Below, one piece after another: positions 14,735 through 36,711 of a stretch of DNA of 64,000 nucleotides. This DNA comes from Candidatus Collierbacteria bacterium. Lineage in GTDB: Bacteria > Patescibacteriota > Microgenomatia > UBA1400 > JACPES01. Each line of letters begins with the position of its first letter. Position 1 is the stretch's first letter. Both the position numbers and the translations under genes were made by a program. Under the pieces are notes generated by a model. It was not told where the DNA came from. It saw nothing but the letters and a program-made list of their open reading frames with translations, and ran no database searches. The stretch is taken from NCBI GenBank assembly GCA_016219325.1, contig JACRNH010000026.1:3098-67097 (forward strand), written 5' to 3'.

Positions 14735-15615
14735 TATTTCGACGGTTTTCCCTTAAACGTAAATTCTATGACTCCAATTGTTGCTGCCGATTTAATAACC
14801 AGCAGAAACAACGGATATAATGTTAGCAAACTCAACAATCCTTCGCTAACTTTCCCTTTTCCCCTGATCGCCTTGATTACTCCTGCACCGACTGCCCACA
14901 ATGGAAATTCTTTTATCAATCCCCCCAAGATCCCGAATTTATAATTTCTTTTACCAGCCCATCTGGCCTGAATAAAAGCTTCTGACAAATTTTCCGGATT
15001 ATAATGATAAAATCTGGCTTTAGTTTCAGTAGCTTTAGTCCCAAGCTTTTCGCTTAAACTCCAATCGTCGTTATAGCCTTTATTTTCGTCAAATCCGCCA
15101 GCCCTGTCAAATTCTGTTCTTAAAATCGCCCGAAACACCGGCGCCGTTTCCGGATAATCTACCGGAATTGACCGCGGCTCATAGATGCCTTTGGCATAAT
15201 TCCAGAATCTGCTAAAACGGTTATTCCAGTTGACAACATATTCCAGTTTGGAGAAAGTTCCTTTTGATTTTCCTTCTTGAATCGGTTTAACTAAATCTGC
15301 CAAGAACGTCCGACTAAATATCATGTCCGCATCCACAAACACCAAAATATCCCCTGTCGAATGTTTTGTCCCCAAGTTCCTCGCCGCCCCCGCTCCCAAG
15401 TGCTTTTGCCTTAAAACTACCACGTCATTGCGAGGGGTGTACCGTCCGGTACGCCCCGTGGCAATCTCGACTTCTCTCTCCGTCCCATCCGTCGAACCAT
15501 CATCAACGATGATCACTTCTTTCGGCTTTAACGTCTGGCCAGCCAATGACTCCAGGCACCTGCCAATAACTTTCTCCTCGTTATAAACTGGAATTACTAC
15601 CGATATATCTTTCAT
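14734..15615 (-). CDS. GT2 family glycosyltransferase; carries P3 in-frame element
   Basis: ISVVIPVYNEEKVIGRCL...IIVDDGSTDGT...DADM. Confidence 0.65.
   Translation of the reverse strand: MKDISVVIPVYNEEKVIGRCLESLAGQTLKPKEVIIVDDGSTDGTEREVEIATGRTGRYTPRNDVVVLRQKHLGAGAARNLGTKHSTGDILVFVDADMIFSRTFLADLVKPIQEGKSKGTFSKLEYVVNWNNRFSRFWNYAKGIYEPRSIPVDYPETAPVFRAILRTEFDRAGGFDENKGYNDDWSLSEKLGTKATETKARFYHYNPENLSEAFIQARWAGKRNYKFGILGGLIKEFPLWAVGAGVIKAIRGKGKVSEGLLSLLTLYPLFLLVIKSAATIGVIEFTFKGKPSK
15424..15467. repeat. P3 element GTCATTGCGAGG-N19-CGTGGCAATCT in GT2 gene (encodes ...EIATGRTGRYTPRND)
   Basis: Shared with ~16396-16428 and ~35718-35750. Confidence 0.75.
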
Positions 15616-15683
15616 AACTTGACTCTTGACAGATACTATATATAATCACATCAATTAAAAGATTATCTCATAAAAATCCTATT

Positions 15684-16046
15684 ATGAATCCCGAACCAGA
15701 AATAAATAGTTTTGATTTGGCAAGAATAGTAATTGGCGATTCAATCCGCTCTGTTTATACTGACCCAAACTTATTAAAGGGGACAACTTTAGAAGATATT
15801 TTAGATCGACTTAATGACAAAGAGGGGGATTTAATGGTTCAAAGCGTTTTAGCAGGATATGCCGCTTCGGAACATGCAATGGTTGCTTCTGGTGAACCGA
15901 TAAATCTTGATAAACGTTTACTTGGGAAAAAATTGAATATTAGTGCTGTAAAACTTAAAGTCGAACTCAAAAAACAACTCTCTGAATTTTTAAGCCTCGA
16001 AGAAGAACCACGTCGAATTTTTCTTCAAGGACTGCTCTCTAAATAA
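15684..16046 (+). CDS. Hypothetical protein, 120 aa; only plus-strand gene inside a 20-kb minus-strand array
   Basis: ORF with ATG; no recognisable motif; acidic/charged; convergent 8-nt overlap with GT4 gene. Confidence 0.3.
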   Translation: MNPEPEINSFDLARIVIGDSIRSVYTDPNLLKGTTLEDILDRLNDKEGDLMVQSVLAGYAASEHAMVASGEPINLDKRLLGKKLNISAVKLKVELKKQLSEFLSLEEEPRRIFLQGLLSK

Positions 16047-17049
16047 TACCTTCAAACTCCTCTAAATATCTGACTGCAATCTTTTTCCAATCAAACTTTT
16101 TCGCCTGCTTTACTGGTTTATCCCTCCAATCAATCTTCGCCGCCGTTTCTAAACATCTCGCGTATTCCTCATTATCTTCCGGATTCTTAACAAAAACTCC
16201 AGAACTACCGATCATCTCTCTTCGCAAGGAATCGTCTGTCGCGACAACCGGAAGGTTACAGGCTATTGCCTCAAGATAAACCAATCCGAAAGCCTCATAA
16301 GATTCGGACGCCAAAGTAAACACATCCGCCGCCCGCAAATATTTCGCCACTTGATTGTGTGGTGTTACCAATCGCAAATACCTCTTGCTTTCACCGTCAT
16401 TGCGAGGAACAGGGCGACGCGGCAATCTCGTCAGATCGCCACGCTTCGCTCGCGATGACAAACCGTTCAACAACCGATTTCCTAATGCATCAATCTTTTT
16501 CTCCAGCGGACCCTCTCCTAGAATCAATAAGCTGCCTCTTTCCAGCTTCGCTACCGCCTTCACCACCTCCCCTACTCTTTTGTAGGAAACAAGATGAGAA
16601 ACTGTAATAAAAATCGGCCGCTCCAAATTAACGTCTGCCTGCTTGACATTCGGATTAAACTTTTCCAAATCAACTCCGTGGGGAATTTTGACAATTTTGA
16701 TGAACGGATTAACTTTTTTCGCCCATTCGTAACCTTTCTGCGAAAAAGCAATGAACAAATCCGGAAACATATATAAATTCCACCTGTCGTCCCGGCCGAT
16801 CCCGGCGTGTCCGCCCAAAACCAACTTAGTGCCTGTAAGCCATGAACAGAGACGGCAGCCGAATGCCTGCCAGTAACCGTTCAGCGGATAAATGATGTCC
16901 GGCCTCCGGCCAATTAACTGCCAGGCCGAAGTCAAAATCTCAATCTGATGTTTCCCACCCAGCCGTTGTCCTAACTCCTTTACATAATTCTCTACTCCTC
17001 TTTCAACTTTTCCCTGATAACGGCTGATAAAAACAATTTTCATTTTCAA
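16039..17049 (-). CDS. GT4 family glycosyltransferase; carries P3 in-frame element
   Basis: SESYEAFGLVYLEAIACNLPVVATDD C-terminal GT-B motif. Confidence 0.65.
   Translation of the reverse strand: MKMKIVFISRYQGKVERGVENYVKELGQRLGGKHQIEILTSAWQLIGRRPDIIYPLNGYWQAFGCRLCSWLTGTKLVLGGHAGIGRDDRWNLYMFPDLFIAFSQKGYEWAKKVNPFIKIVKIPHGVDLEKFNPNVKQADVNLERPIFITVSHLVSYKRVGEVVKAVAKLERGSLLILGEGPLEKKIDALGNRLLNGLSSRAKRGDLTRLPRRPVPRNDGESKRYLRLVTPHNQVAKYLRAADVFTLASESYEAFGLVYLEAIACNLPVVATDDSLRREMIGSSGVFVKNPEDNEEYARCLETAAKIDWRDKPVKQAKKFDWKKIAVRYLEEFEGII
16396..16428. repeat. P3 element GTCATTGCGAGG-N10-CGCGGCAATCT in GT4 gene (RLPRRPVPRND)
   Basis: Read directly. Confidence 0.75.
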
Positions 17050-17118
17050 TATTTATTTAAACAATTCATGTAGATTTAACATGCTATAGCAGAGTCAATC
17101 TACATAATTCATAATCAA

Positions 17119-19905
17119 TTATAAATTAAAATAGTGATCCTTATATTCTGCCAAATCAGCGGTATTTAGATACAACCTAAAATCCTGTTCCCGATCTATC
17201 AACTTTAATTTATCATCTTTCGGTTCATAAGGCGAAATTATGAATTTTGTAGCAGTTTGAGCCAACAGTTCAGCGCTTGGTTGTGGTTGCTGATTGAAAA
17301 CCGAATATGGAGGCAAAATCGGAAAATAATCTTTTTCCGTAAATCCTCCGGCTTTTTGTAAATAATTAACGAATCTCGTCAATTGAATCGGATTATTCCC
17401 GCCTAAAAGCGCAATCCCCATTTTTTGGGCTGTCAACCTATCCAAACAGCCTATCGCGCAATAAACCCGTGTCAAAGATCCTACCGACGCCATGGTTTGA
17501 TAAAACCTAAACGGAATATCATCTTTAATTGCTTGCCTGCGGGAAAAAATTCCACGGTCGAAATATGCGAATTCCAACAATATGGCAATCACTATTGCTC
17601 CGGCTAATAATTTAGATTTTTTTGTCAACCGACTGATTATTTGGGGAACAAATATCGCCATAGCTAATGACATGAAAATCCACGGCCTGGTAGTAATCCG
17701 CAACAGGGAAAATCCGGGGAGCAATTTAATCAAAAAATAAAACGGGGTTTTGATATTAAAGGCGACCAATGGAATAAGCCCCAACCAGACAATCCAAAAT
17801 AAGGCCCGGCCTTGCCTTAGCAAGGCCGGGCCTTTAAATACCAAATATATAACAACCAGTAAAACCGGTGTCAACCCTAAATACAAAATCTCTTCATTTT
17901 GCAATAAAGGATGGCTTCCGGCCAACGGGAAAAATAAGCTTTTAAATATTTTCATCCAACTCCAAAAAGGTAATGGCGCTTCCTGCAAATTCGCCCTGAC
18001 GGTTTGATTCCCGAATAATGCCAAAGGCAGCCAGCGGGGAATGGTTAAAATGAGTGCGGCAATCAACGTCTTAAGCATTTTAAGGCCTGGCCTTGCTGCT
18101 GTAGCAAGGCCAGGCCTTTTAAAAATAATCAAATAATATATAACTACGAACAGAATTGAATAGTACCCAATATTCAAATTATTGATAATAATCGCCGCCA
18201 ATGAAATTGCCGTCCAACCAAACCTTTTATTTTTTAATGCCCAATATAAAAACGGCAGCCAACTGGCGGCAATAACTAAACTCCAGTTCCCTTCTTCAAT
18301 ATGACTTATTATTTTCGGCGACAACACAAACATTCCCATCCCTAATAACACCAATCTCCACGATACTCCTGATTCATTCAATATTTTTTTAACTCCCCAG
18401 CCGGCTAATACCAAATGGCCAATCAGTAAAATCAAAAATCCCAATTCCAACGGCAGAAGCAATAGAATGTAATTTGGGGGATACCATAAAAAGTTTTGCG
18501 GATCTAAAAAGTATGGCATTCCGGCCATAATCCAAGGATTCCACACCGGAAATTTTCCGGCCAGCAAACTATTTTTGAAGAATAACGCGTCGGGCAAAAA
18601 CTGGGTGGTTAAATCGTTTCCGCGATAAAACAGCCGGTTAAAAATTCCCCGGCTAAAACCTTTGTCTAAAACCTCAAATTGCTTCCCACTCATTGACGAA
18701 AAATAAATTTCCGGATTATCTTTATAATTCTTTACCCGACTCAAAATCCTCTTCTGGCTCTCTGAATCAGAACCTAAATATTCTTCTGTCAATTTTTGAG
18801 AGATAATCCCTCTGGTGGTGCTCCAATGGTTTGAGTAATTAAAATTTACAAACAGAAATGACAACGACAACACGATTACTGACGCTATAACCATCGTCAT
18901 TCCGGGCCCTTCGGTCCTGAGACTTTCAGGATCTAAGGGCTTGACCCGGAATCTATTCAAGTAGATTCCAGCTTGCGCTGGGATGACACTGTTTTTTCCT
19001 AATTCAATCATCATCAAGGCAATTCCGAAAATCGCGTATGCCGCCAATAAGTGATTCTCAAATCCCGATACCGGTAAAATCCCTAAAAAATAAAACACCA
19101 TTCCTTTAATTAATTTCTGACGGAATATCAAAATTAAAAAGACAGCCGGAATTAAACTGCCAACCGTTAACCAAAACGGAAAATTTCTGATTCCTTCGGG
19201 GATAAATAACGCTCTCAATCCGTACCATTTCAGCGAAGAAATAATTCCCAATAAGTTCGTTGAAATCGTGTAATCGGCATTTGGAGAAAACGGGTTAGCT
19301 AGAAACTTGGCTCCGATCAAGAATAGACCGGCGACCAATCCGAGAACGGCCATTCTTTTCTGCTTAAACCAAATCCACCAAACAATCGGCAAAAAAACTA
19401 CAACTTCATGCGACAAAATTCCGAATAAATATAAAATGAGCCCACAAGTTTGTGCTAAAAAGGCTTGGCCTTGCTTCGCAAGGCCAAGCCTTAATAAATA
19501 AGTCGACGTCAACCCAAAACTCACCGCGATCTCTATATCAACTTGAGTCAGCCAATTTAAAACCACAAAATGAGCCGGATTCACCGCGTAAAAAAGCATT
19601 AAGTAAAAACTCTTATTTTTCAATAATTTCCACAACAAAACAATATTTATAAGATGGATAGAAAGTCCAAGCAAATGAAATCCACCGGCATCCAAACCGG
19701 ACAGTCCGCTCCCTATCCAAAAGAATAATTGTTGGCCAACTGGCCGATAAAACGCTTCTGAATGATGATCAAATATTTTTGCGAAAGGTTGTTTATAAAC
19801 ATGAGACAAAAATACCCAATCGTCTTGAGAAAAATAAGTTCCGAGCGTCGGAGCAAACACAACCGCCGCCGCAATCAAAATAATTCCCAACTGCCAAAAT
19901 TTCAT
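17119..19905 (-). CDS. Large polytopic membrane protein, YfhO-family-like (928 aa), putative polymer glycosyltransferase; three in-frame P1 palindromes
   Basis: Many TM segments; GKFPVWNPWIMAGMPYFLDPQNFLWYPPNY resembles the YfhO FPLWNP...G.P motif; N-terminal FSQDDW region. Confidence 0.45.
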   Translation of the reverse strand: MKFWQLGIILIAAAVVFAPTLGTYFSQDDWVFLSHVYKQPFAKIFDHHSEAFYRPVGQQLFFWIGSGLSGLDAGGFHLLGLSIHLINIVLLWKLLKNKSFYLMLFYAVNPAHFVVLNWLTQVDIEIAVSFGLTSTYLLRLGLAKQGQAFLAQTCGLILYLFGILSHEVVVFLPIVWWIWFKQKRMAVLGLVAGLFLIGAKFLANPFSPNADYTISTNLLGIISSLKWYGLRALFIPEGIRNFPFWLTVGSLIPAVFLILIFRQKLIKGMVFYFLGILPVSGFENHLLAAYAIFGIALMMIELGKNSVIPAQAGIYLNRFRVKPLDPESLRTEGPGMTMVIASVIVLSLSFLFVNFNYSNHWSTTRGIISQKLTEEYLGSDSESQKRILSRVKNYKDNPEIYFSSMSGKQFEVLDKGFSRGIFNRLFYRGNDLTTQFLPDALFFKNSLLAGKFPVWNPWIMAGMPYFLDPQNFLWYPPNYILLLLPLELGFLILLIGHLVLAGWGVKKILNESGVSWRLVLLGMGMFVLSPKIISHIEEGNWSLVIAASWLPFLYWALKNKRFGWTAISLAAIIINNLNIGYYSILFVVIYYLIIFKRPGLATAARPGLKMLKTLIAALILTIPRWLPLALFGNQTVRANLQEAPLPFWSWMKIFKSLFFPLAGSHPLLQNEEILYLGLTPVLLVVIYLVFKGPALLRQGRALFWIVWLGLIPLVAFNIKTPFYFLIKLLPGFSLLRITTRPWIFMSLAMAIFVPQIISRLTKKSKLLAGAIVIAILLEFAYFDRGIFSRRQAIKDDIPFRFYQTMASVGSLTRVYCAIGCLDRLTAQKMGIALLGGNNPIQLTRFVNYLQKAGGFTEKDYFPILPPYSVFNQQPQPSAELLAQTATKFIISPYEPKDDKLKLIDREQDFRLYLNTADLAEYKDHYFNL
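17800..17835. repeat. P1 palindrome (spacer CTTA), in-frame in YfhO-like gene
   Basis: Read directly. Confidence 0.85.
18081..18119. repeat. P1 variant AAGGCCTGGCCTTGC-TGCTGTA-GCAAGGCCAGGCCTT, in-frame in YfhO-like gene
   Basis: Read directly; compensatory C/T-G/A change keeps palindrome. Confidence 0.8.
19459..19493. repeat. P1 variant AAGGCTTGGCCTTGC-TTC-GCAAGGCCAAGCCTT, in-frame in YfhO-like gene
   Basis: Read directly; compensatory changes keep palindrome. Confidence 0.8.
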
Positions 19906-19963
19906 ATTTTTGATACTTCAATTATTTTCCTGCAGAGCAGGATCAGTCTTTGCCTGAAAATAA

Positions 19964-21256
19964 TTAAAAAGCTTCATCATTGGTAATAGAGTTAATATAT
20001 TCCAGTAATTTTTTCGGTTGGTAAGATCCGGGAACAAACTCCGCTTCGCTTTGATATGGAAATAAAATCGTCTGTTTAAGATTTTGCCGCTTAAAATTAT
20101 CTATCAATTTTTCCTGAAATCCCGGCAATTCTAAAAACCACGGAAATTGCGTCAGCCATGGCTTAGGAGGCAATCTATCGGATAAAACGTACGCCAGTTC
20201 CGGACCATTGACTAATAATACCGGTTGGTTTTTATCGGTCTCCATCGCCAATTTTGCCGCTACTTGATAAAATTCGGGCTCCAAAAATCGGTCAGGCTTT
20301 TGCCACTGGGCCTGAATTATCCTGAACCAGAAAAATCCCAAGTAAACTACCATTAGGCTTATTAAAATATAATTTTTATAATTTTTATAACCTTTATAAT
20401 AGTTATAAAGGCTTCCAATTTCCAACGCTAAAAAAGCGATCATTGGCTGAAAATGAAATAATCCAAATCTGGGAAAGACAAATAATCCAGACCAAAACGC
20501 CCACTGCAACGGACAATTTATGCTGAAAAATTTTCCCCACTCCCTCCTGCCTTTCAGTAATGCCCCCGCCCCTACAATTAACGCCGGGGCTAACGCCAAA
20601 GCCCAATGCCTCCACGTCGCCAAATCCAAATGCCCCGGCATCCTCGGGAAAAGCCGGAAAGTAAAATCGTAAGCCCAAAACCAATAATCGTTCAGTATTC
20701 CTCTGGACCAAAACCAAACCAGGCTCGTTCCTATTGTCACGGTGACCGCCACAACTAAACGTTTCCACTGTTTCCAAAACAAAGGGAATAACCACACCAC
20801 TGACTGTTTAACTAAAAACGCCGGAGCCAAAAACAAAGAGTTATCAAAATGAAACGCCAATAAAAGCAACGGCGCAACCGCTAAATCAAACCATAAACCA
20901 TTCCCGTCAAATAACGGCTGAAACAGCATAAAACTTATCAACGAAATAATTCCTGCCGTCTTTCCCCAGTGCTTGGCAGCTATTAAATAAATTAAGATAT
21001 CGGTAAAAATAATTATTAACCAAGTTAAAACTTTTAAATTCCAAATAGACAATCCGGTCAACCAAAACCATCCCTGTAAGATCCACATTAATCCCGGAGT
21101 CCACGGAACAATCATATCCCGGTAAAGTTCAAATCCGTTTTTCATCAAATACGGCATCAGCATCATCTCCGGCCAGACCTCAAACCGAAGTTGAGTTAAT
21201 ATCAGCAGATGGACAACGATCAAAAACGCAGCCTGTAGCATACTCCCATCCCCCAA
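19964..21256 (-). CDS. Polytopic membrane protein, hypothetical (possible GT-C/mannosyltransferase-like)
   Basis: Hydrophobic throughout; KNY 9-mer DNA repeat encodes YKGYKNYKNY. Confidence 0.35.
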   Translation of the reverse strand: MGDGSMLQAAFLIVVHLLILTQLRFEVWPEMMLMPYLMKNGFELYRDMIVPWTPGLMWILQGWFWLTGLSIWNLKVLTWLIIIFTDILIYLIAAKHWGKTAGIISLISFMLFQPLFDGNGLWFDLAVAPLLLLAFHFDNSLFLAPAFLVKQSVVWLFPLFWKQWKRLVVAVTVTIGTSLVWFWSRGILNDYWFWAYDFTFRLFPRMPGHLDLATWRHWALALAPALIVGAGALLKGRREWGKFFSINCPLQWAFWSGLFVFPRFGLFHFQPMIAFLALEIGSLYNYYKGYKNYKNYILISLMVVYLGFFWFRIIQAQWQKPDRFLEPEFYQVAAKLAMETDKNQPVLLVNGPELAYVLSDRLPPKPWLTQFPWFLELPGFQEKLIDNFKRQNLKQTILFPYQSEAEFVPGSYQPKKLLEYINSITNDEAF

Positions 21257-21849
21257 TTAAACATTTTCTTTTCCTCGACTTTTAGGCCGGCTTTTTTGAA
21301 TAACCCTTCCAAAAGTTCGACATTAAAAAATGTCAAGTGAGCTCTATTCCAAACTCTTCCTTTTCCAAATTTTTTCCAAAAAAACCAAATAACTTGAAAT
21401 AGCCAACTCCCGCTATCGATTTCTACAATTATCGATCCGCTTCCTTTAAGAATTCTTTTTAATTCTATTAATGTCCCAAATGGATCAATTACGTGTTCCA
21501 AAGTTTCCAGAATTGTAATTAAGTCCACAGACGAATTTCTCAGAGGCAGTCTATGGGCGTCTGCCTGAATAAAAACGATATTCCGGTGTATTTTCTTTCC
21601 GAAAGCCAGGGGCGGCAAATATGGGTCTATGGCGATTATTTTATTTAATTTAATTCTCTTAGACAATGAATTAACAAAACTTCCGTCAGCCGAACCGACT
21701 TCAACTAAAACATCAGCTTTCTTTCCGCCGACGGATTCCGCTACCGCTTTTAATTTCCCGCCATGCCAAATTCTCTGCAGGAAATTTGTTTTTACCCCGG
21801 ACGAAAAATAATCGGCCGGTACTTGCGACCAAATTTTAGGTAAATCCAT
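21220..21849 (-). CDS. Class I SAM-dependent methyltransferase
   Basis: LVEVGSADGSF motif I, DLITILETLEHV. Confidence 0.6.
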   Translation of the reverse strand: MDLPKIWSQVPADYFSSGVKTNFLQRIWHGGKLKAVAESVGGKKADVLVEVGSADGSFVNSLSKRIKLNKIIAIDPYLPPLAFGKKIHRNIVFIQADAHRLPLRNSSVDLITILETLEHVIDPFGTLIELKRILKGSGSIIVEIDSGSWLFQVIWFFWKKFGKGRVWNRAHLTFFNVELLEGLFKKAGLKVEEKKMFNWGMGVCYRLRF

Positions 21850-21875
21850 ATTTTGAGAATTGTATACTAAATTAT

Positions 21876-23792: not shown

Positions 23793-25275
23793 ACATTTTT
23801 GGTCAAAAGTTATATTGACAATTATTTTTTCCCTGCTGGTTTTTCCAAATCTTGGAATCAGAACTTTATGGCAAGACGAGGCGGAAACCGCCTTAGTTGC
23901 CAGACAAATGGTCAAATCAAATAATTGGCTGCCATACGCTTATGACGACCAGGGACCGATCAATCAGGATTGGAATTATCAATTTTCAGTTAGCAAATTA
24001 TGGCGCTGGCATCCGTGGCTCCAATTTTATGTTACCATTCTGTCGTTTAAATTCTTCGGTGTTTCCGCCTTGACCGCCAGATTGCCTTTTACCTTAATCG
24101 GAATTTTATTTTTTTGGTATTGGTTGGGATTTATCGAAAAACACGGCCCGAAAAATAAACTATTCTATTTTCTGGCGGTTAGTTTAGTTTTAACTTCTGT
24201 CCCGCTTTTATTGCATATCAGGCAAGCCAGATATTATTCATTGGCATTGTTGTTTACCTTGATGGCGGTGGATGGATATTTGCTTAATCTGAAAAGGACG
24301 GTCCTCTCCAAAAGAGGGCCGTCCTTTAAATATATTCTCGGCAGCATTTTACTTTTTCACAGTTTCCTTCCCGGAGCGCTGGCTTTACAAATTTCTTTCT
24401 GGATTCATCAAATTTATCGTTTGATAAGACCCGGCCTTGCGATGCAGCAAGGCCGGGCTTTTATTCGGTTCGCCGCCACTTTCTCAACAACTCTAATCTT
24501 TACTCTCCCATGGGCCTGGTGGCTCAAAATCGGGGGCCAAAATCTAAACTTTAATTTAGAAATTATTAAACAAAATCTACACTGGCATTATGTTTACATC
24601 CATAAATTTATTTTTCCGGTTTTTCTTTTAATCCCGTTTTTATTTTCCGGAATTAGATCAAAAATTTTAAAAAACAATAATGGCTTACTATTTTTATTAA
24701 TAATCATTACCACCCTCGGGCTTTATACCATCAACCATCCATATTTTTTCCGCTATTTGGTGCCGTTAGTCCCGTTTTTCACTTACCTCGCCGCCCGGAT
24801 TATTGTTTCACTTCCTAAAAAATTGGCTATCGCTGCCACATTTATCGCCTTTTTCCCGGGTCTTAGACTTCTTCCTGACTATTTATTTGAAATTGCTCAT
24901 CCGTATATTGGAACTAATGAGCAGATAATAGCAATGCTTAATTCCGAAAAATTTTCTGGGACTAAAAGCCTGGCCGTAAATTACGACGACTTTACTTTCC
25001 GGTTTCATACTAATTTAATTGTTCATGGAGCCCAAGAATTGACAAAATTAAATACCTGCCCCGACTCTGTGATTATTTTTCCGGAGTGGGGAAATGAAGA
25101 CTTACTGGAGAATATTGCCAACGGTTGCCACTTAGAAAATTATCCGTCTGAAATTAGTTATGCAAAGCTGGCCGATGACCCAAGTCCGGTCAACCACCGT
25201 TTTACGCCTCCTCAAACCGGTTCAATTAAGATTTTTGTAAAACCTCCGGAATCTCTTGTTTATCCATCTGAATAG
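23785..25275 (+). CDS. GT-C fold membrane glycosyltransferase (ArnT/PMT-like); two in-frame palindromes
   Basis: LWQDEAETALVARQM first-loop motif; polytopic. Confidence 0.55.
   Translation: MFKHFWSKVILTIIFSLLVFPNLGIRTLWQDEAETALVARQMVKSNNWLPYAYDDQGPINQDWNYQFSVSKLWRWHPWLQFYVTILSFKFFGVSALTARLPFTLIGILFFWYWLGFIEKHGPKNKLFYFLAVSLVLTSVPLLLHIRQARYYSLALLFTLMAVDGYLLNLKRTVLSKRGPSFKYILGSILLFHSFLPGALALQISFWIHQIYRLIRPGLAMQQGRAFIRFAATFSTTLIFTLPWAWWLKIGGQNLNFNLEIIKQNLHWHYVYIHKFIFPVFLLIPFLFSGIRSKILKNNNGLLFLLIIITTLGLYTINHPYFFRYLVPLVPFFTYLAARIIVSLPKKLAIAATFIAFFPGLRLLPDYLFEIAHPYIGTNEQIIAMLNSEKFSGTKSLAVNYDDFTFRFHTNLIVHGAQELTKLNTCPDSVIIFPEWGNEDLLENIANGCHLENYPSEISYAKLADDPSPVNHRFTPPQTGSIKIFVKPPESLVYPSE
24293..24327. 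repeat. P1-related palindrome AAAGGACGGTCCTCT-CCAAA-AGAGGGCCGTCCTTT in GT-C gene
   Basis: Read directly; one mismatch between arms. Confidence 0.6.
24426..24460. repeat. P1 degenerate copy AAGACCCGGCCTTGC-GATGCA-GCAAGGCCGGGCTTT in GT-C gene
   Basis: Read directly. Confidence 0.7.
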
Positions 25276-25945: not shown

Positions 25946-26423
25946 TTACAACCTCCTTTAATAAATCTGCCATTACCCGGTGGCCTTTTTCGGTAAAATG
26001 ACCATCTTGCGGATAGTATAAAAAACCGGCTTCTTTTTTAGCTGCGTCTCTAAAATCCGGAACTAAGTTAACAACTTTAATGTCGTTTTTATCACCAAAT
26101 TCTACCAATAAATCGGCTGCTGTCGCCGGATATAATTTCCCTGTTTCAAATCCGTTCCTAACCCTGCCCTCGCTCCATTCGTCCTCCCCTGCCTGATGAC
26201 CATAAGGATAAGTCGTAACAACAAAATGGATCTTTTTTTTCTTCAATAAATCCTTGATTTTGATTAAATTGGCTGATATCTCTTTCCATGCTTCCGGATT
26301 AGCAGCATTCTCTTTGGATCTGGTGATATAGTGAGGATCGCTATTGAGATCGTTAACTAAAAACACTGTCGGTTCCGGCAAGTTTTTAATTTTCCTAACC
26401 AACTGTTTTGTTCTATCAGCCAC
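25920..26423 (-). pseudogene. SGNH/GDSL hydrolase, C-terminal half (block V DGHFTEKGH), out of frame with upstream N-terminal half
   Basis: Homologous to the C-terminus of the intact 436-aa SGNH protein at 38570..39880 (RYFYERDGHFNARGHGRVAEAL vs FLYYPQDGHFTEKGHRVMADLL); T8 homopolymer inside. Confidence 0.45.
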
Positions 26424-26467
26424 TACCGCATAGAGAGCGGAAGTAGATCTTAGCCAAAATTTAATTT

Positions 26468-27070
26468 TTAGTTAACCGTCGGAATAGCTACATGCGGCCG
26501 GCCCATTTGCTGCTGGAATAAAATATTTTGAAAATTCCCGTCCTTATCAATATCTTTGGCATACGCGAAATCATTTTGATAATCGCTCATATCAACATTA
26601 ACTATCACTAAATCCGGATTTAACGGCAAACCCTTATCTTTAATTATCCGATAATAAATAGCCGGGGCATAACTCATAACTCCCATGTTAACTGTCTCTA
26701 TTTTATGTCCGGTTTCCGCAGTCATTTCTTTCCCGGTTAAATACACAGCTATTTTAGCTTCCGCGACACTCTCCCCTTCTATAAATGAATCGCCAACCAC
26801 TAACACCCTAAAAACGCCTGCCGGCTTTAGCGCTTCCAAATCTTGCCCCCTAAATCCTAAGTTATTAACTTTGAATTCCACATCCCATTCCGGATATTTA
26901 GACCGGCAAACCGTATCCGGAACCAACTCGTGATGAAACTGCGGGCTCTGGCGGCGGCAAGCTCTGGTCTCAATATTCCGGTTACGGAAATTTTCCCAGC
27001 GGAAAAAAAATTCCGAAAATACTAAAAATATTAATCCCGACAAAAATGCCAAAAATACTTTTGACTTCAT
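26468..27070 (-). pseudogene. SGNH/GDSL hydrolase, N-terminal half (signal/TM anchor + GDS block I)
   Basis: VFRVLVVGDSFIEGESVAEA matches IYRILILGDSMTFGWGVEDG of the 38570..39880 paralog; ends at a stop and the downstream fragment is in another frame. Confidence 0.45.
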
Positions 27071-27073
27071 AAA

Positions 27074-29768: not shown

Positions 29769-29821
29769 TCGTAGGCTTAAACCCGCCAGCAGAATTATTA
29801 ATAGAGAAAATCTATATTTTG

Positions 29822-29932
29822 TCAGGATTGTTATCTTGTTATCTTGCTAACTTGATATATTGCTAAAGATAGTTAAAGTCGCAACTGATAAGACTTCAGG
29901 ATAACAAGATAACAAGCTAGCAAGCTAACAAT
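29822..29932. repeat. Intergenic hairpin element IG-B (TGTTATCTTGTTATC ... GATAACAAGATAACA, 15-bp perfect stem, about 60-nt loop, TTCAGGAT direct repeats)
   Basis: Related copy at ~36712-36780. Confidence 0.65.
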
Positions 29933-29936
29933 CAAA

Positions 29937-30308
29937 TTATGTTGAACTTTTGGCTATCATCAGTATTCCCACGATAATCACAACTAAGCCGCTCCATCTC
30001 AATAGCGGAATATCTTCATGCAAAACAAATTTAGACAGAAGAATCGTCACGATATAAGCGAAAGCCACCATCGGATAAGCAAAGGACAATTTTTCCCGGG
30101 ATAAAACTACCAGCCATAAGAAAACATTAACTCCAAAAAATGCCAAACCTCCGATAACATACCTATTAGAAAATGTTTTCAAAATGATATTAATTAAACC
30201 GTCGGAAAACTTTAGTTCCCCCACTTGGGTCATCCCGATTTTTAATATCATTTGGCCGATGGCCGCGGCTGTCACCGGAATTAATATTGAAATAATGCGA
30301 TTAAACAT
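29937..30308 (-). CDS. SMR/DMT-superfamily small membrane protein, ArnE/ArnF-like (EamA-like)
   Basis: 123 aa, 4 TM, within aminosugar-lipid module. Confidence 0.45.
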   Translation of the reverse strand: MFNRIISILIPVTAAAIGQMILKIGMTQVGELKFSDGLINIILKTFSNRYVIGGLAFFGVNVFLWLVVLSREKLSFAYPMVAFAYIVTILLSKFVLHEDIPLLRWSGLVVIIVGILMIAKSST

Positions 30309-30840
30309 ATGTAAGTTTTTTCTTAATTTCTGCCGGAACGCCGGCCGCCAACACTTTCTCCGGAATATTTTTCGTAACCACGGTTCCGGCTCCGACCATT
30401 GTTTCTTTGCCTATTGTAACTCCTGACAGCACTGTAGCGTTAGCCCCAATAAAAACTCCTGTTCCGATAACGGTTTTCTCAACTCTTTTAGGATAATGCT
30501 TAATTAAAGGATGATCGGAGAATCCCACTGATAAATGGCTTAAAATTATGACCCCGGGGGAAACCGCGGCATGGTCTCCAATCTCTACTCTTCCGGCTAA
30601 ATCAATTATTGATCCCGGGCCCAAAAATACTTTACTGCCAAGAGTTAGTCCCGGCAATCCGGTCCTGTCAAGATTCATAAAATTAACCTTATCGATAACC
30701 GCCGACCAGGGGATATTGGCTCCGAATAATTTCATCCACAAAACCCGCAGAGGCGACCAGGGCAGCAGACGAAAAACCATATCCCAAAGACCAAAAATAA
30801 AGTACTTCAGTAATCGTCTTAATCCAATTTCTGTCAACAT
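30301..30840 (-). CDS. Hexapeptide-repeat (LbH) acetyltransferase
   Basis: VIGTGVFIGANATVLSGVTIGKETMVGAGTVV hexapeptide repeats. Confidence 0.65.
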   Translation of the reverse strand: MLTEIGLRRLLKYFIFGLWDMVFRLLPWSPLRVLWMKLFGANIPWSAVIDKVNFMNLDRTGLPGLTLGSKVFLGPGSIIDLAGRVEIGDHAAVSPGVIILSHLSVGFSDHPLIKHYPKRVEKTVIGTGVFIGANATVLSGVTIGKETMVGAGTVVTKNIPEKVLAAGVPAEIKKKLTYV

Positions 30841-30930
30841 TTATGTAATGAGCAATGAACAGAAAACAGAAAACAATGAAAATCATTATTCATTGCTTTC
30901 TACTCATTATTTTCTGCTCATTGTTTTCTG
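30841..30930. repeat. IG-A element copy (TAATGAGCAATGAACAGAAAACAGAAAACAATGAAAA...TCATTGCTTTCTACTCATTATTTTCTGCTCATTGTTTTCTG)
   Basis: Read directly; supplies the last 8 codons and stop of gene 30907..32508. Confidence 0.7.
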
Positions 30931-32508
30931 ACTAAACAATTCTACTCCAAATCTCCATAAAAACCATCCGCTGCTGATTATCCCTAAACTAATTATCCCC
31001 GGTAAAAAGGGAGTTTTGAAAAACCATGGCTTATATTGGCTGGCCCGCAGGAAAAAAGTTTGAAAATTAGTTATGCTGCCAAAATATGATTCTGACACAA
31101 ACCATAAGGAGAACCAGTTAAAAACTGTCATTAAAACGACCAGAGATAAACCAATAGCTCTACGGAAACGAACCGGAGACAAAACCAACAGTCCAACCAA
31201 TAAAATGGCCATATGCTCTGTTAAATTAGGGAAAAAATATCTTCCCTGAATTCCGAACGAAAAACCCTTGCTTCTCCAGAACAATAAATTCCAAGCGTAA
31301 ATACCCAATGTATAAATCAAGCTGCTGCCGATTAGCCAAGCAAACGGCTTTAAATTGGCGACAATTTTTATTTTCTTAAAACCGGTTATCAATCCGATTA
31401 AAAAAAGTCCCGTGATAATTTTTATAACCCGATAAACCCAAAGGGGCAATGTCAAAGACAGCCAGCGGTAAACCCCCCAATACCACGGTAATACTTGGCG
31501 GTAAAAATCAACTGCCGATATTTTAATATAGTCGATTAAAAATGGTTGAGAATTCAAACCAATAGTGTCTTCAACTTCGGGAATGAACATATTGGCCAGT
31601 AACGGCTGCGGAATAATATTCCTAAGAGCCGTCCTGTTTATTATTCCGATGAAAATAACCGCGGCTATCGCCAACAGAACTACGGCTGATATTAATTTCG
31701 GAACAAGTTTGTTCTTCCGGCCGGTAATTACTTTCAGCCAGAGAAATAATGAAATTATTATCAAAAAAACTCCTTGAGTTTTCGTCAACAAAAGAGCAGC
31801 CAAAGCCAAAATCAGGGCTATCAGGTTTTTCCAGGTCGGGCGAAGATCGGCTTTTAACAAAAAAAGCATCGACAGGGGATAAATAAAATTCATCAAAGAG
31901 TCGCTGGTAACGCCGCTGCCTGTAAACATCCGCATCGGCTGAAACACCGCCATAGCGGCTAAAACGTAAGCATAGAAAATCTGTTTAAATAATATTTTCC
32001 CGATATTAAAGACCACAACCCCTAATCCTACGGACAATAAAACCGTCGCCGCTCTGGACAAAAACACTCTGGAAACCAAATCAAGGCTCCAGAATTGCTT
32101 GTTTATGGCTGATATATATAAATAGTATAAAGGCGGATAACCTGTAGCTTCATTAATTGAAAGAATGCTTCTTGATTCTGCCGGCATCGCAATCATTTCT
32201 TTTTCGTACAGTCCGTAAACAGAATTGGCGTACTCAATATTATATTCAGGATGATATGTAAACTTATTATTTCCCCGCTCATCTCTAAAAACTCCCAGAT
32301 ATTTTTCCGATAAAACAATATCAGCTGATGTTGAATACCCTGATTGAGGACGGTTTCTCAACGCCGCAAAATCCTGGGCTTGGGCAAAATGAGCCTGCTC
32401 ATCAGGGGTTTGCCAAAGGGGAATCATTGCTGCCCAGCTGATTCCGGCGAAAAAAACCGCGGTTGAAAAAATTATTAAAAGTTTGGAGGCTTTCTGTTGA
32501 AATTCCAT
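30907..32508 (-). CDS. GT-C fold membrane glycosyltransferase (ArnT/DUF2142-like)
   Basis: PLWQTPDEQAHF loop motif; polytopic. Confidence 0.5.
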   Translation of the reverse strand: MEFQQKASKLLIIFSTAVFFAGISWAAMIPLWQTPDEQAHFAQAQDFAALRNRPQSGYSTSADIVLSEKYLGVFRDERGNNKFTYHPEYNIEYANSVYGLYEKEMIAMPAESRSILSINEATGYPPLYYLYISAINKQFWSLDLVSRVFLSRAATVLLSVGLGVVVFNIGKILFKQIFYAYVLAAMAVFQPMRMFTGSGVTSDSLMNFIYPLSMLFLLKADLRPTWKNLIALILALAALLLTKTQGVFLIIISLFLWLKVITGRKNKLVPKLISAVVLLAIAAVIFIGIINRTALRNIIPQPLLANMFIPEVEDTIGLNSQPFLIDYIKISAVDFYRQVLPWYWGVYRWLSLTLPLWVYRVIKIITGLFLIGLITGFKKIKIVANLKPFAWLIGSSLIYTLGIYAWNLLFWRSKGFSFGIQGRYFFPNLTEHMAILLVGLLVLSPVRFRRAIGLSLVVLMTVFNWFSLWFVSESYFGSITNFQTFFLRASQYKPWFFKTPFLPGIISLGIISSGWFLWRFGVELFSQKTMSRK

Positions 32509-33197
32509 AATTCCTTAAGATAAATTAACGTATCCGGGATAAGTTTAACCGTCGAGGTTTTGTCGTAACGCCTGATAAAAACTACCGGAATTTCAGTAAT
32601 TCTCAATTTAGCCCTTGAGGCTTTGACCATTATTTCGGTATCCCAAAACCATCCCGGACTGTAACACTTTCTAACAACAGGCAATATTTTATCCCTATCA
32701 AAGAACTTATATCCCGCTTCGGTATCTTTAAAAATTTCACCTAAAACTAAATTCCGAACACTGCCATACCCCTTGCTGGCAAACCACCTCGGCAGGCTTT
32801 TTAAAGTAAAATCGTAAATTCTCCATCCGGATGCAACATCAAATCCAGAATTTATTTCCGAAATAAACCTTGGAATATATTCCGGCGGAATTTCGCAATC
32901 GATATCAATATATCCGACTACTTTCCCCTGCGACTTTTCTATTCCTTCAGAAACAGACCTGCCCCGTCCCGAATTTTTATCATGAAAATACACAGACAAA
33001 TGTTTCCTGGGATTTTTTTTAATATATGATCTAATCAAGTTAGAAGTCCTATCAGTTGAGGCGTCTTCAATAAAAATAATCTCCCAGCTGAAACTACTGC
33101 CATCAAGAACATTAATTATTCTGTTCACGCTTTGATTAAAATGCTCGCTTTCGTTAAAACAAGGCAAAACCAAGCTAAAATCAAATTGATAAGCCAT
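32475..33197 (-). CDS. GT2 polyprenyl-phosphate sugar transferase (ArnC/DPM1/GtrB-like)
   Basis: FSLVLPCFNESEH...IFIEDASTD...GRGRS; size and motifs of Und-P glycosyltransferases. Confidence 0.6.
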   Translation of the reverse strand: MAYQFDFSLVLPCFNESEHFNQSVNRIINVLDGSSFSWEIIFIEDASTDRTSNLIRSYIKKNPRKHLSVYFHDKNSGRGRSVSEGIEKSQGKVVGYIDIDCEIPPEYIPRFISEINSGFDVASGWRIYDFTLKSLPRWFASKGYGSVRNLVLGEIFKDTEAGYKFFDRDKILPVVRKCYSPGWFWDTEIMVKASRAKLRITEIPVVFIRRYDKTSTVKLIPDTLIYLKELWNFNRKPPNF

Positions 33198-33221
33198 AAA
33201 GTGATATTATCATAGCAATAT

Positions 33222-33300
33222 CATTGGGACATGGGAACATTGGAACATGGGAACAAATGCTCTAATGCTCAAATGTTCAAATGTTCAAATGCTCTCATGA
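33222..33300. promoter_or_regulatory. 5' leader repeat element IG-C (CATTGGGACATGGGAACATTGGAACATGGGAACAAATGCTCTAATGCTCAAATGTTCAAATGTTCAAATGCTC) directly upstream of aminotransferase start
   Basis: Second copy upstream of RmlD-like gene at ~47372-47435, same orientation relative to downstream gene. Confidence 0.5.
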
Positions 33301-34502
33301 ATTCAATCAATCTTCCCGCTATTGAAGGAGGAAAACCGGTCAGGAAAGATTTTTTGGTTTTTGGCCGGCCAATGATTCTTAAAGAAGAAATTGATGAAGT
33401 TCTGGAGACCTTACGTTCCGGCTGGTGGGGAACCGGACCCAAAACCAAATTCTTCGAAAAAGAATTCGCCAAATATGCCCATGCCAAATACGCATTAGCG
33501 TTGTCTTCATGCACGGCAGCCACAGAACTGGCTCTTGATATTTTGGAAATTGGCACCGGCGACGAAGTCATTACAACTCCTCTGACATTCGTTTCTACTG
33601 CCAATGTAGTCCTCCACCGTGGCGCAACAGTCAAATTTGCCGATGTTGATCCAAACACCTGGAATATTGATCCAAAATTTATCGGAAAAACCATTACCAA
33701 AAAAACAAAAGCCGTAATTCCTGTCCACCTTCATGGACGGCCGGCAGATATGGATGCGATTACTAAAATTGCCAAGGATCACAAACTCTATGTTATTGAA
33801 GACGCTGCCCACGCGGCCGAAGCCTGGTATCACGGAAAAAAAATTGGCAGTATCAGCGACTTTACCGCCTTTTCTTTTTACGCCACCAAAAATGTGGCTA
33901 CCGGCGAAGGCGGAATGTTGACGACCAACAATAAACAATGGTTTGAAACCGCCGCGATCCGGGCTCTTCACGGCCTATCCGCCGACGCCTGGAACCGATA
34001 CTCTGCTTATGGATTTAAACCTTATGAAGCCGTTTATCCCGGATACAAAATAAATATGACCGATATCCAGGCGTCTTTAGGCTTACCTCAACTAAGGTCA
34101 ATTGAAAAAAGCTCTAAAGTCAGAACAAGAATCTGGCAGGAATATCAAAAAGCTTTTTCTAAAATAGAAAGTTTGATAATTCCGGCCACTGACGAAGCAA
34201 ACACTGTTCATGCCCGCCATTTATACGCTTTGGTATTAAAACCAGAAATGTTTAAAGTTGACAGAAACAGATTTGTCGCCGCTCTTCAGGAAGAAGGCAT
34301 TGGTTGCGGAGTTCATTTCATTCCGGTTCATCTGCACGAATATTACAGAAAAACTTTCGGATATAAGCTTGGTGATTTTCCGGAATCGGAAAAAATCGGA
34401 CTGAATATTTTCTCCTTACCTATTTATCCTACAATGAATAAAAATGACGTTAGTGACGTCATCAATGCAATCCAAAAATTGGTAGACTATTACAGAAAAT
34501 GA
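33231..34502 (+). CDS. DegT/DnrJ/EryC1/StrS PLP-dependent sugar aminotransferase (ArnB/PglE-like); true start probably MNSINLPAIEGG (~33298)
   Basis: IEGGKPV, LALSSCTAATELAL, FSFYATKNVATGEGG (PLP-lysine region). Confidence 0.75.
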   Translation: MGTLEHGNKCSNAQMFKCSNALMNSINLPAIEGGKPVRKDFLVFGRPMILKEEIDEVLETLRSGWWGTGPKTKFFEKEFAKYAHAKYALALSSCTAATELALDILEIGTGDEVITTPLTFVSTANVVLHRGATVKFADVDPNTWNIDPKFIGKTITKKTKAVIPVHLHGRPADMDAITKIAKDHKLYVIEDAAHAAEAWYHGKKIGSISDFTAFSFYATKNVATGEGGMLTTNNKQWFETAAIRALHGLSADAWNRYSAYGFKPYEAVYPGYKINMTDIQASLGLPQLRSIEKSSKVRTRIWQEYQKAFSKIESLIIPATDEANTVHARHLYALVLKPEMFKVDRNRFVAALQEEGIGCGVHFIPVHLHEYYRKTFGYKLGDFPESEKIGLNIFSLPIYPTMNKNDVSDVINAIQKLVDYYRK

Positions 34503-35470
34503 AAACTTATCTTATTACCGGAGGAAGCGGCTTTATCGGGAGTTTCATTTGCGAAAAATTGTTAGCTGAAAATAACCACATTATTTGTGTTGATAATTTC
34601 ATTACCGGCCAACGTAAAAATATTGAACATTTATTATCAAATCCCAATTTCACCCTGATCGAAGCCGATGTTTCAAAACCGGATTGGATTGAATCAACGC
34701 TCAACGTTCAACGCACAACGCTCAATTTCATCCTCCACCTCGCCTCCCCTGCCGGCCCCAACCCTAAAAGCCCCAAAAGTTATCATGCTCTCCCTGTAGA
34801 AACTTATTTGGTTAACTCTATCGGGACTCATTACCTTTTGGAACTTGCCAAAAAACACAATGCTGTTTTTCTGTTTGCCTCAACCAGCGAAGTTTATGGC
34901 GACCCCGAGGTCCATCCCCAACCGGAAACCTACTGGGGACATGTAAATCCCATCGGCCCCAGAGCAATTTACGACGAAAGCAAACGCTTTGGCGAAGCGA
35001 TTTGCGCCGCCTGGAGCCGCAAATTTGGCCTCCAAACCCGAATCGCCAGAATTTTTAATACCTATGGCCCAAGAATGAATCCTGATGACGGCAGAGCTAT
35101 CCCGCTTTTTATCCAATCATCCATCAACCATCAACCATTAACCATTCATGGTGACGGACATCAAACCCGCAGTTTCTGCTACGTTGATGACCAAGTTGAA
35201 GGACTGCTAAAACTTCTGCGCTCCGATCTAAATGCCGATCCGGTCAACATCGGCAACCCCGTCGAACTGACAATTAAAGAACTTGCGGACACAATTATCC
35301 GGCTAACAGGCTCAAAATCCACAGTTCAATATAATAAACTGCCGGAAGACGACCCCGAACGCCGCCGTCCGGATATTTCAAAAGCAAAAAAGCTTCTCGA
35401 CTGGGAACCGAAGGTTGGACTGGAAGAAGGACTGAAAAAAACTATTGAATATTTCCGAGGAGCTAATTAG
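34499..35470 (+). CDS. UDP-glucuronate decarboxylase (UXS/ArnA-decarboxylase-like SDR); carries an in-frame heptamer-repeat insertion
   Basis: ITGGSGFIGS, YDESKR, RIFNTYGPRMNPDDGRAIPLFIQ (UXS signature). Confidence 0.7.
   Translation: MKTYLITGGSGFIGSFICEKLLAENNHIICVDNFITGQRKNIEHLLSNPNFTLIEADVSKPDWIESTLNVQRTTLNFILHLASPAGPNPKSPKSYHALPVETYLVNSIGTHYLLELAKKHNAVFLFASTSEVYGDPEVHPQPETYWGHVNPIGPRAIYDESKRFGEAICAAWSRKFGLQTRIARIFNTYGPRMNPDDGRAIPLFIQSSINHQPLTIHGDGHQTRSFCYVDDQVEGLLKLLRSDLNADPVNIGNPVELTIKELADTIIRLTGSKSTVQYNKLPEDDPERRRPDISKAKKLLDWEPKVGLEEGLKKTIEYFRGAN
34694..34724. repeat. Heptanucleotide repeat (TCAACGY)4 in-frame in UXS gene
   Basis: Read directly. Confidence 0.7.
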
Positions 35471-35540
35471 TCGTTTATTACAGAGAATTATTCAATTTCT
35501 GTTACTAACAACTAACAACTAATTACTAATAACTATTTTA

Positions 35541-36479
35541 TTGACTGGCTGCGCCGGATTTATCGGATCTAACCTACTTGATCGTCTCCTCGCTGATGGT
35601 TATCGTGTCATCGGCGTTGACGACTTTAATGATTATTATTCTCCGATTCAAAAACGCTCCAATATCGCTCGCCACCTAAACGATAACAATTTTACCCTGA
35701 TTAAATCAGATATCAGTAGATTGCCACGTCGCTACGCTCCTCGCAATGACGAAACAATTAACATCGTCATTCACTTAGCAGCGAGGGCAGGAGTACGAGC
35801 GTCTATTAAAGAGCCGCTTTTATATCAGAAAGTCAACGTCGGCGGAACATTAAAAATGCTGGAGTTGGCGAAAGAATTAAAAGTTAAGCATTTTATTTTT
35901 GGCTCAAGTTCCAGCGTTTACGGAAACAATACTCCTGTCCCGTTTCGCGAAGACGCTGCTTGCGATCAGCCGATTTCTCCCTATGCCGCTACCAAAAGAT
36001 CGGGCGAATTATTATGTTTTGCTTATTCTCATTTATATAAAATTCCCACAACTGTTTTAAGATTCTTTACCGTATATGGTCCGCGGAACCGCCCGGATAT
36101 GGCAGCATTTAAATTCATGGACTCTATTGCAAATGAAAAACCGGTTGACTTCTACGGTCAAGACACCAGCCGGGATTATACATATGTTGATGACATTGTT
36201 AACGGCATTCTGGCTGCTATCAATTTCATTCCCGATAATTTTGATATTTTTAATTTAGGAAATTCTTCGCCAACAAAATTATCTGAATTTATAAATACAA
36301 TTGAAGAAGTTGTTGGTAAAAAAGCTATTTTGGTTAAAAAAGAACTTCCTCAAGGCGACGTTCAAACAACTTTTGCAGACATTTCAAAAGCGGAAAAAAT
36401 TCTGAAATGGAAACCAAAGGTTAATCTTAAAACCGGAATCGAAGAACTTTGGAAATGGTATAAAATGGCAGATAGATAG
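35541..36479 (+). CDS. NAD-dependent sugar epimerase/dehydratase (GalE/WbpP family); carries P3 in-frame element
   Basis: TGCAGFIGSNL Rossmann motif, YAATK catalytic YxxxK. Confidence 0.7.
   Translation: MTGCAGFIGSNLLDRLLADGYRVIGVDDFNDYYSPIQKRSNIARHLNDNNFTLIKSDISRLPRRYAPRNDETINIVIHLAARAGVRASIKEPLLYQKVNVGGTLKMLELAKELKVKHFIFGSSSSVYGNNTPVPFREDAACDQPISPYAATKRSGELLCFAYSHLYKIPTTVLRFFTVYGPRNRPDMAAFKFMDSIANEKPVDFYGQDTSRDYTYVDDIVNGILAAINFIPDNFDIFNLGNSSPTKLSEFINTIEEVVGKKAILVKKELPQGDVQTTFADISKAEKILKWKPKVNLKTGIEELWKWYKMADR
35718..35750. repeat. P3 element (opposite DNA strand, same sense orientation) AGATTGCCACG-N10-CCTCGCAATGAC in epimerase gene (RLPRRYAPRND)
   Basis: Read directly. Confidence 0.75.
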
Positions 36480-36707: not shown

Positions 36708-36711
36708 AAGC

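Follow-up and report, generated by a model that had tools for sequence, protein, structure and literature searches.

What makes three enzymes of unrelated fold, encoded in one stretch of a patescibacterial genome, share a peptide that ends in PRND? The question is raised by a 64,000-nucleotide (nt) stretch of Candidatus Collierbacteria DNA (contig JACRNH010000026.1, positions 3,098 to 67,097; hereafter, the window), where a first-pass annotation had noticed a short imperfect palindrome, P3, lying in frame in the genes of a family 2 glycosyltransferase (GT2), a GT4-type glycosyltransferase (GT4), and a sugar epimerase, and had preferred shared mobile DNA to a shared protein motif as its explanation. 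Our analysis comes down on the same side, since the same DNA occurs in at least 120 genomes—mostly outside open reading frames (ORFs)—and since orthologues with empty GT4 sites exist. The architecture of P3 and a nuclease gene found beside it further suggest that P3 is probably an undescribed and very widespread variant, not a canonical member, of the Ssn-related hairpin repeats, a class associated with small GIY-YIG nucleases.

The three copies lie at the positions first given for them and carry the conserved ends GTCATTGCGAGG and GGCAATCT as they had been quoted, a combination present three times in the window and in none of 100 shuffles; the pattern used for this chance test, CATTGCGAG-N8-38-GCAATC, has three matches against none in 100 dinucleotide-preserving shuffles. 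Copy A (15424-15467, + strand, 44 nt, GTCATTGCGAGGGGTGTACCGTCCGGTACGCCCCGTGGCAATCT) combines an outer stem, ATTGC/GCAAT, with a 10-bp inner hairpin and folds as DNA at −12.2 kcal/mol (z −3.3), its forward (GTCAT…) strand being the + strand and hence the template strand of the GT2 gene. Copy B (16396-16428, + strand, 33 nt, GTCATTGCGAGGAACAGGGCGACGCGGCAATCT), within the GT4 gene, has a degenerate centre and has lost its folding, and copy C (35718-35750, − strand, 33 nt, GTCATTGCGAGGAGCGTAGCGACGTGGCAATCT), within the epimerase gene, has the centre GCGTAGC. Each copy is in frame in a long ORF, and Pfam backs the identities that had been assigned to the hosts: a family 2 glycosyltransferase of 293 amino acids (aa) (14734-15615, − strand; Glycos_transf_2, E 2.7e-33), a GT4-type glycosyltransferase of 336 aa (16039-17049, − strand; Glycos_transf_1/Glyco_trans_1_4), and an NAD-dependent sugar epimerase/dehydratase, 312 aa as listed (35541-36479, + strand; Epimerase/GDP_Man_Dehyd). 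The orientation relative to the gene is indeed the same in all three, the sense strand reading the reverse complement, AGATTGCC…CGCAATGAC. As for the peptide motif that had been proposed, R(L/I)xx..(Y/P)xPRND, its PRND ending holds throughout, whereas the R(L/I) start applies to copies B (RLPRRPVPRND) and C (RLPRRYAPRND) only, because copy A, with its 44 nt, enters the element in a different frame and gives EIATGRTGRYTPRND, the EIAT… entry. To these we add a fourth, diverged copy, B′ (16433-16459, − strand, GTCATCGCGAGCGAAGCGTGGCGATCT), absent from the first-pass annotation, which abuts copy B so that the GT4 sense strand holds an inverted doublet, in which a short spacer separates a forward from a following reverse copy. 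The outer stem of B′ has changed with compensation from ATTGC/GCAAT to ATCGC/GCGAT, and its peptide is (L)SSRAKRGDL.

P3 is not private to this genome or lineage. Species-representative genomes (one per species), scanned for GTCATTGCGAGG-N5-35-GGCAATCT, yielded at least 137 copies at no fewer than 120 loci (loci are given L numbers below), and the phyla among the matches listed include Planctomycetota, Chloroflexota, Bacillota, Bacteroidota, Pseudomonadota, Armatimonadota, Atribacterota, Patescibacteria, and others. The common plan reads (Y)GTC, outer stem ATTGC, GA, a variable inner hairpin, GYG, outer stem GCAAT, and CT(C), and it folds into an outer stem plus an inner hairpin, frequently in a short form with a GCGNAGC mini-hairpin between tandem G·A mismatches. 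Among the matches listed, a pyrimidine precedes the element in 118 of 135 copies (position −1) and a C follows it in 85 of 135 (position +1), with the flanks further out being random, which gives the element sharp boundaries. Overall lengths range from 25 to 55 nt, the centre sequence is variable, and three-base periodicity is absent. Compensatory changes preserve the centre as a hairpin: the arms of the inner hairpin complement their own partners at 3.38 of 5 positions, compared with 1.41 of 5 for the arms of other copies, and the outer stem likewise has variants with compensated changes (ATCGC/GCGAT and ATTCC/GGAAT). With the three window copies counted, 113 of 140 copies are not spanned by an ORF that reaches at least 40 aa on each side, and the possibly coding copies use all six frames, 13 of them in forward and 14 in reverse orientation. 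Many copies elsewhere also form inverted doublets of the kind seen in the window (16396-16459 and 18896-18988), as in L204, L012, L028, L054, L074, and L077. Against Rfam 15, the whole window stayed below the gathering thresholds, with only chance-level matches around the copies (E up to 10), and a full-text literature search with the P3 core sequence returned unrelated primers only. Some lineages share further bases after the element, namely L013, L004, and L112 (Oscillospiraceae) and L001, L054, and L074 (Planctomycetota), with …GGCAATCTcccggtac… or …GGCAATCTcaaacgttcgat…, and local P3 subfamilies may extend further 3′ than the pan-bacterial core.

When the ORFs of the P3 loci were clustered all against all, a single small family, a protein of about 95 residues, was found to touch the element, and this clustering gave no other recurrent neighbour in contact with it. 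The protein is a GIY-YIG nuclease, matching Pfam PF01541 as its sole domain (E 1e-15 to 1e-16). Its gene, of about 95 aa, has a close P3 copy at 4 of the 120 loci listed, lying ∼50 to 60 nt upstream of the gene in L013, L085, and L108 and on both sides of it in L025 (∼2485-3080), from Candidatus Falkowbacteria of the candidate phyla radiation (CPR), where forward and reverse P3-type copies bracket the gene. The arrangement recurs among 80 metagenome loci fetched with the P3-associated proteins: 47 of 78 loci have a forward GTCAT hairpin no more than 200 nt upstream of the gene, and 61 of 80 have a reverse one no more than 220 nt downstream of it, against a background in the same loci of 0.33 GTCAT hairpins per kb, or ∼3% expected per such interval. 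The stems at these loci vary (ATTCC, ATCCT, ATGCT, ATTCT, and, in L187, ATTGC, so that this gene is bracketed by exact P3-type copies), and the ends (T)GTCAT…ATGAC(A) are constant. The L025 gene is itself split by a palindromic insert of ∼170 nt with inverted ends (GAGATGGTTACAAAACTATTT…) and stop codons, which makes the nuclease gene a target of another small palindrome.

The sequence of a sister family, GTCATTCCCGC, used in a full-text search, led to the work of Chenal et al. (2025, Nat Commun 16:2388, PMC11893778), who describe the neisserial repeat NTS, CGTCATTCCCGCGMAVGCGGGAATCYRG, as an extension of the old dRS3 repeat and generalize it to Ssn-related motifs (SRM), hairpins of 20 to 50 nt. 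In their account, SsnA is a 94-residue single-domain GIY-YIG nuclease (CDD cd10448) encoded in the arrangement SRM-ssnA-SRM; it binds the hairpin only as single-stranded DNA and on one strand only, makes its cut directly upstream, is inactive on RNA, and helps to restrict the integration of incoming DNA during transformation. The authors point to a likeness with insertion sequences and with repetitive extragenic palindromes (REP) and their associated tyrosine transposases (RAYT), count Rickettsia among the SRM-rich genera without equating the repeats with Rickettsia palindromic elements (RPEs), and make no mention of CPR bacteria. Our literature searches found no follow-up to this paper, and those on GIY-YIG proteins with palindromes or RAYT, and on COG2827/YhbQ, gave nothing relevant. 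The association of GIY-YIG gene and hairpin reported here is thus a rediscovery of the Ssn/SRM arrangement. The size of the P3-associated proteins, their 52 to 68% identity to proteins flanked by canonical NTS-type repeats, and a weak match to PDB 1zg2, a UPF0213 protein, suggest that they belong to the cd10448 type.

P3 resembles SRM/NTS repeats in its oriented 5′ tag (C/T)GTCAT, its 20- to 50-nt hairpin, its …ATCY tail, its many copies across phyla, and its position at the flanks of a single-domain GIY-YIG gene of ∼94 aa. In the window, the published tag HGTCWY stands directly before the hairpin (CGTCAT in copies A, B, and C and TGTCAT in B′), and the inverted repeat of 20 to 50 nt keeps its structure, as judged from folds and arm complementarity, though copy B is unfolded. 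The repeat-gene-inverted repeat layout around a GIY-YIG gene is found elsewhere, on both sides in L187 and L025 and upstream in L013, L085, and L108, and not in the window. P3 is unlike SRM/NTS in its two-tier stem, where a GA/GYG internal loop separates the ATTGC/GCAAT outer part from an inner hairpin that varies and is often GCGNAGC. The setting of the window repeats also differs, in that all six copies (P3 and sister elements) are intragenic and in frame and a cognate ssn gene was not found in the readable genome. The sister elements, missed by the first-pass annotation, form an inverted doublet in frame in an ORF of 928 aa (17119-19905, − strand), which has no match in a Pfam scan and also holds three copies of another palindrome family. 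The doublet consists of an element with an ATTCC/GGAAT stem and a nested small palindrome (18896-18953, + strand) and of a canonical SRM, TGTCATCCCAGCGCAAGCTGGAATCTAC (18961-18988, − strand), which reads in frame as VIPAQAGIY and is the sole match in the window to the published SRM pattern, HGTCWYN(0-2)YYVSBRHN(0-5)WNVSBRGN(0-2)RNCYNB.

How P3 came to lie within the enzymes can be followed from orthologous sites. The states of the GT4 site line up cleanly as an insertion that then decayed through short deletions. Most orthologues, including those of L210, L121, and L122, are empty, with LLG(P/A)|(K/R/H)RY at the junction; the window has 75 extra bases, which hold the doublet; L209, whose forward copy stands alone and equals B′ in sequence, is missing 33 nt that have TGAC at either side; and in L211 CGCAATGAC alone is left, read as RND. 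The GT4 insert, whole or partly deleted, is limited to a subset of Collierbacteria. A repeat, ACGGT, was considered as a target-site duplication here and rejected, being neither kept in L209 nor matched by a counterpart in the epimerase. For the epimerase, L203 is empty (LTIKQF|NNETID) and L204 carries the full doublet, the reverse half of which equals copy C base for base. Relative to L204, the window gene is 75 bases short, having lost native codons along with the forward copy and the spacer, and this deletion leaves the window epimerase only two residues longer than its empty relatives. L205 retains 15 bases. The same epimerase loop holds repeat-derived peptides such as SAKGRSASGG, LNAQRSTL, and PSSF… in the orthologues P0005, P0021, P0028, P0032, and others, which makes this one surface segment a recurrent landing site for several palindrome families.

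The GT2 site is probably a hot spot. The peptide EIA…PRND stands at the same place in at least seven orthologues of 75 to 79% identity, L121 carries, between identical flanks, an element of 32 nt whose centre differs, and native orthologues have a segment of similar length at the site. Simple insertion was considered for the GT2 and epimerase sites and rejected, given these native segments of near-equal length; the net length change at the two sites is only +2 to +6 aa, and for GT2 we infer, from length alone, that native codons were lost together with half a doublet. Being common to orthologues at 70 to 80% identity, the insertions appear to be old. They are not ancestral to the protein families: the first-pass annotation had held that its view would fall if the PRND segment proved an ancestral feature of any host family, and distant orthologues of all three families lack it. 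As a separate observation, a third palindrome family fills the GT2 site of L122 (∼10050-10160) with an inner hairpin, GTACCAGACGGTAC, nearly the same as that of copy A (GTACCAGACGGTAC versus GTACCGGACGGTAC), which suggests nested or exchanged hairpin modules.

At the protein level, the frame is kept in every orthologue state—elements of 32, 33, and 44 nt and states of 75, 42, and 9 nt—and none contains a stop codon. In the AlphaFold model of GT4, with a mean pLDDT of 92, the insert (approximately residues 196 to 222) has values of 53 to 58 and is placed between a helix (183-194) and a strand (224-227). The simplest reading is that the elements are translated and tolerated as loops. A TGA within the conserved end closes one of the two reverse-strand frames that could serve; read in the PRND frame, the element encodes a charged peptide. 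A bias in frame and orientation was considered as a sign of selection on the peptide and rejected: there are three independent sites, five of the six frames are open, and copies elsewhere divide 13 to 14. In-frame copies also occur in two Candidatus Daviesbacteria loci, L077, with a doublet in YchF, and L083, by the ORF-spanning call only. The YchF GTPase of L077 (1487-2686) reads its doublet as SLRDHEVAKQS…EIATGSLSPRND and has a second repeat-like segment, STNSGQAP. Endings and beginnings such as …PRND, SLRG…, VIAR…, and …LAMT in predicted proteins are, on this reading, signatures of a DNA element and not protein motifs.

We propose that, in an ancestor of the Collierbacteria subclade with a genome ∼95% coding, inverted doublets entered the genes of a surface-glycan cluster, the doublet being the unit copied. 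The survivors would be those that kept the frame, had no stop codons, and fell in tolerant surface segments; such copies would be translated as hydrophilic loop peptides and would then erode through deletions between short direct repeats. P3 is predicted to be recognized by an Ssn variant of its own, and its spread would depend, now or formerly, on this cognate nuclease, the likely route being cuts in exposed single strands followed by repair from another copy.

Several points weigh against this account and against the placement of P3 with the Ssn-related repeats. (i) The published SRM pattern, which matches an NTS control, matches none of the four P3 copies of the window and none of 135 elsewhere—P3 escapes it through its two-tier stem with the GA/GYG internal loop—and membership therefore rests on architecture and gene association. 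(ii) No ssn-like gene was found in the window, in its extension by ∼9 kb (∼73 kb of the genome in all), or in two related Collierbacteria loci totalling 38 kb. (iii) Copy B is unfolded, so that at least some of the copies here are relics; given the absence of ssn from the readable genome, the window copies may be relics altogether. (iv) No consistent target-site duplication is seen in the flanks of the 135 listed copies or at the filled and empty epimerase and GT4 sites. (v) Even for canonical SRMs, an origin like that of insertion sequences is put forward as a hypothesis only (PMC11893778).

Points (ii) and (iv) bear on the strongest rival, which has P3 moved by other machinery—a Y1 transposase of the REP/RAYT type, an unrelated transposase that takes the GTCAT…ATGAC doublet ends as its substrate, or host replication through slippage and template switches—with the ssn gene merely homing into doublets or using their hairpins as regulatory or terminator elements. 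Its appeal lies in the enzyme: GIY-YIG nucleases act by hydrolysing DNA, with neither unaided strand joining nor strand transfer known for them, and the ssn gene sits at the position of the doublet spacer, as a free-standing homing nuclease gene inserted into its own target would; the lack of an ssn gene near the window copies fits as well. Yet no transposase, IS200/IS605-like Y1 (HUH) enzymes included, turned up in Pfam scans of the four host ORFs and of 27 ORFs at ∼20 to 52 kb or in the annotated assemblies that overlap part of the rest of the window, the GIY-YIG gene is the sole recurrent contact neighbour at the 120 P3 loci listed, and the ends of the doublet, inverted repeats though they are, come without the fixed-length target-site duplication typical of cut-and-paste miniature inverted-repeat transposable elements. 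We consider such machinery rather unlikely.

Less likely still, and to be taken as a conjecture, is that the Ssn-type hairpins of CPR bacteria serve as marks at the DNA level, with Ssn cutting incoming or exposed strands and so setting the limits of recombination of the surface-glycan cluster. This would liken them to the NTS clusters around Neisseria surface-protein genes, but inside reading frames, and, if true, would make the doublets the first sites, empty and filled at base level, to show that SRM repeats move.

Set against the proposed spread of P3 as DNA, a selected protein feature—a convergent or exchanged PRND surface loop that serves the three enzymes, the palindrome being incidental—is very improbable. 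It would account for the hydrophilic …PRND ending that all three window copies give in frame and for the retention of the GT2 copy in seven or more orthologues, but the same DNA is mostly noncoding elsewhere and its coding copies take all six frames, the centres covary as DNA hairpins and not as peptides, orthologues exist with empty, half, or three-codon remnant states, the model shows the segment as a loop of low confidence, and the reverse-strand TGA of the conserved end leaves few usable frames. We give equally little credence to action at the RNA level, through removal from the mRNA, ribosome bypass, or a structured mRNA signal. Copy A would form a stable mRNA hairpin, and the small GC-rich palindromic "byps" of a yeast mitochondrion are reportedly bypassed by the ribosome; a skipped segment, however, would have no need of the kept frame and the absence of stops seen in all copies and states, Rfam gives no match, and Ssn has no RNA activity. 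An assembly or binning artefact by collapsed repeats or chimeric joins, conceivable for palindromes in a metagenome-assembled genome because these can confuse assemblers, is barely credible, as L208, assembled independently from the same run, shows 100% identity over 6.4 kb (12485-18930) that cover A, B, and B′—so that these copies are not artefacts of a single assembler—and in orthologues from unrelated samples the element stands at the very same codons.

If P3 is indeed a variant of the Ssn-related repeats, it joins several systems of small mobile palindromes. With the REP and REPIN elements associated, as is reported, with RAYT enzymes it shares short imperfect palindromes with a conserved head, the occurrence as singles and inverted doublets, and repeats that bracket the gene of an enzyme which recognizes them as single-stranded hairpins; it differs in having a hydrolytic GIY-YIG nuclease in place of an HUH/Y1 transposase and the head GTCAT in place of GT[AG]G, and REPs are extragenic by definition, unlike the P3 copies of the window. 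RPEs resemble P3 as palindromes that sit in frame in unrelated genes of a small genome and are translated into surface segments that the proteins tolerate, but they are reportedly ∼100 to 150 bp long, compared with 32 to 44 nt here, and presumably of unrelated sequence, and P3 is at most their functional analogue. Fungal mitochondria have mobile GC clusters, double-hairpin elements, and byps, which are likewise GC-rich mini-palindromes that invade coding regions of AT-rich genomes and nest in each other; unlike P3, they belong to organelles, their sequences are unrelated, and the ribosome skips some of them instead of translating them. The small dispersed repeats of heterocystous cyanobacteria, said to be 21 to 27 nt long, are also very short, palindromic, prone to nested insertion, and in part intragenic, but are confined to one lineage and have no associated nuclease described.

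The window as a whole (G+C content ∼40%, ∼95% coding) is one large envelope-glycan cluster, with glycosyltransferases, PMT-like membrane proteins, sugar-modifying enzymes, a flippase, and an ABC exporter. Inside it lies a gene for an AbiEii-type nucleotidyltransferase toxin (50397-51269, − strand; PF08843, E 1.3e-24) adjoining an unassigned ORF of 224 aa. Several further palindrome families are also found within ORFs of the window. A second family, GGCCCGGCCTTGC-N-GCAAGGCCGGGCC, probably the family P1 of the first-pass annotation, has copies at 1914-1942, 3092-3121, 17803-17832, 18084-18116, 19462-19490, and ∼24425-24460, all inside ORFs and three of them in the 928-aa ORF, and a third, TTCCGGCRRAGCCGGATCCCGCTYTGCGGGA, occurs at 11876-11915 and 42778-42817 inside two ORFs. 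Outside ORFs, a 55-nt intergenic repeat (10175-10229 and 19915-19969, copies 91% identical) consists of two small hairpins, CCTGCAAAGCAGG and AGGCTTCACCT. Tandem arrays of 7- to 8-nt units (GGAACATT, GATAACAA, TTACTCA, and AATTCTG) are mostly intergenic (33213-33312 and 47361-47452; 29827-29950 and 36711-36797; 12437-12526 and 13248-13334; 9375-9416 and 37824-37860), and some recur far apart in either orientation.

The Ssn/SRM system was described only in 2025. A widespread P3 subtype that is invisible to the published pattern means that SRM censuses made with that pattern are undercounts. The orthologous sites in empty, full, half, and remnant states, resolved to the codon, are direct evidence of doublet insertion and of decay by short deletions, and they are the first empty and filled sites at base level that our searches found for the Ssn-type class of repeats. 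In a CPR genome that is 95% coding, such repeats reside inside enzymes, where they are tolerated as loops, much like the palindromic elements of Rickettsia: a normally intergenic, selfish repeat has invaded three Collierbacteria enzyme genes and is tolerated there as extra protein loops.

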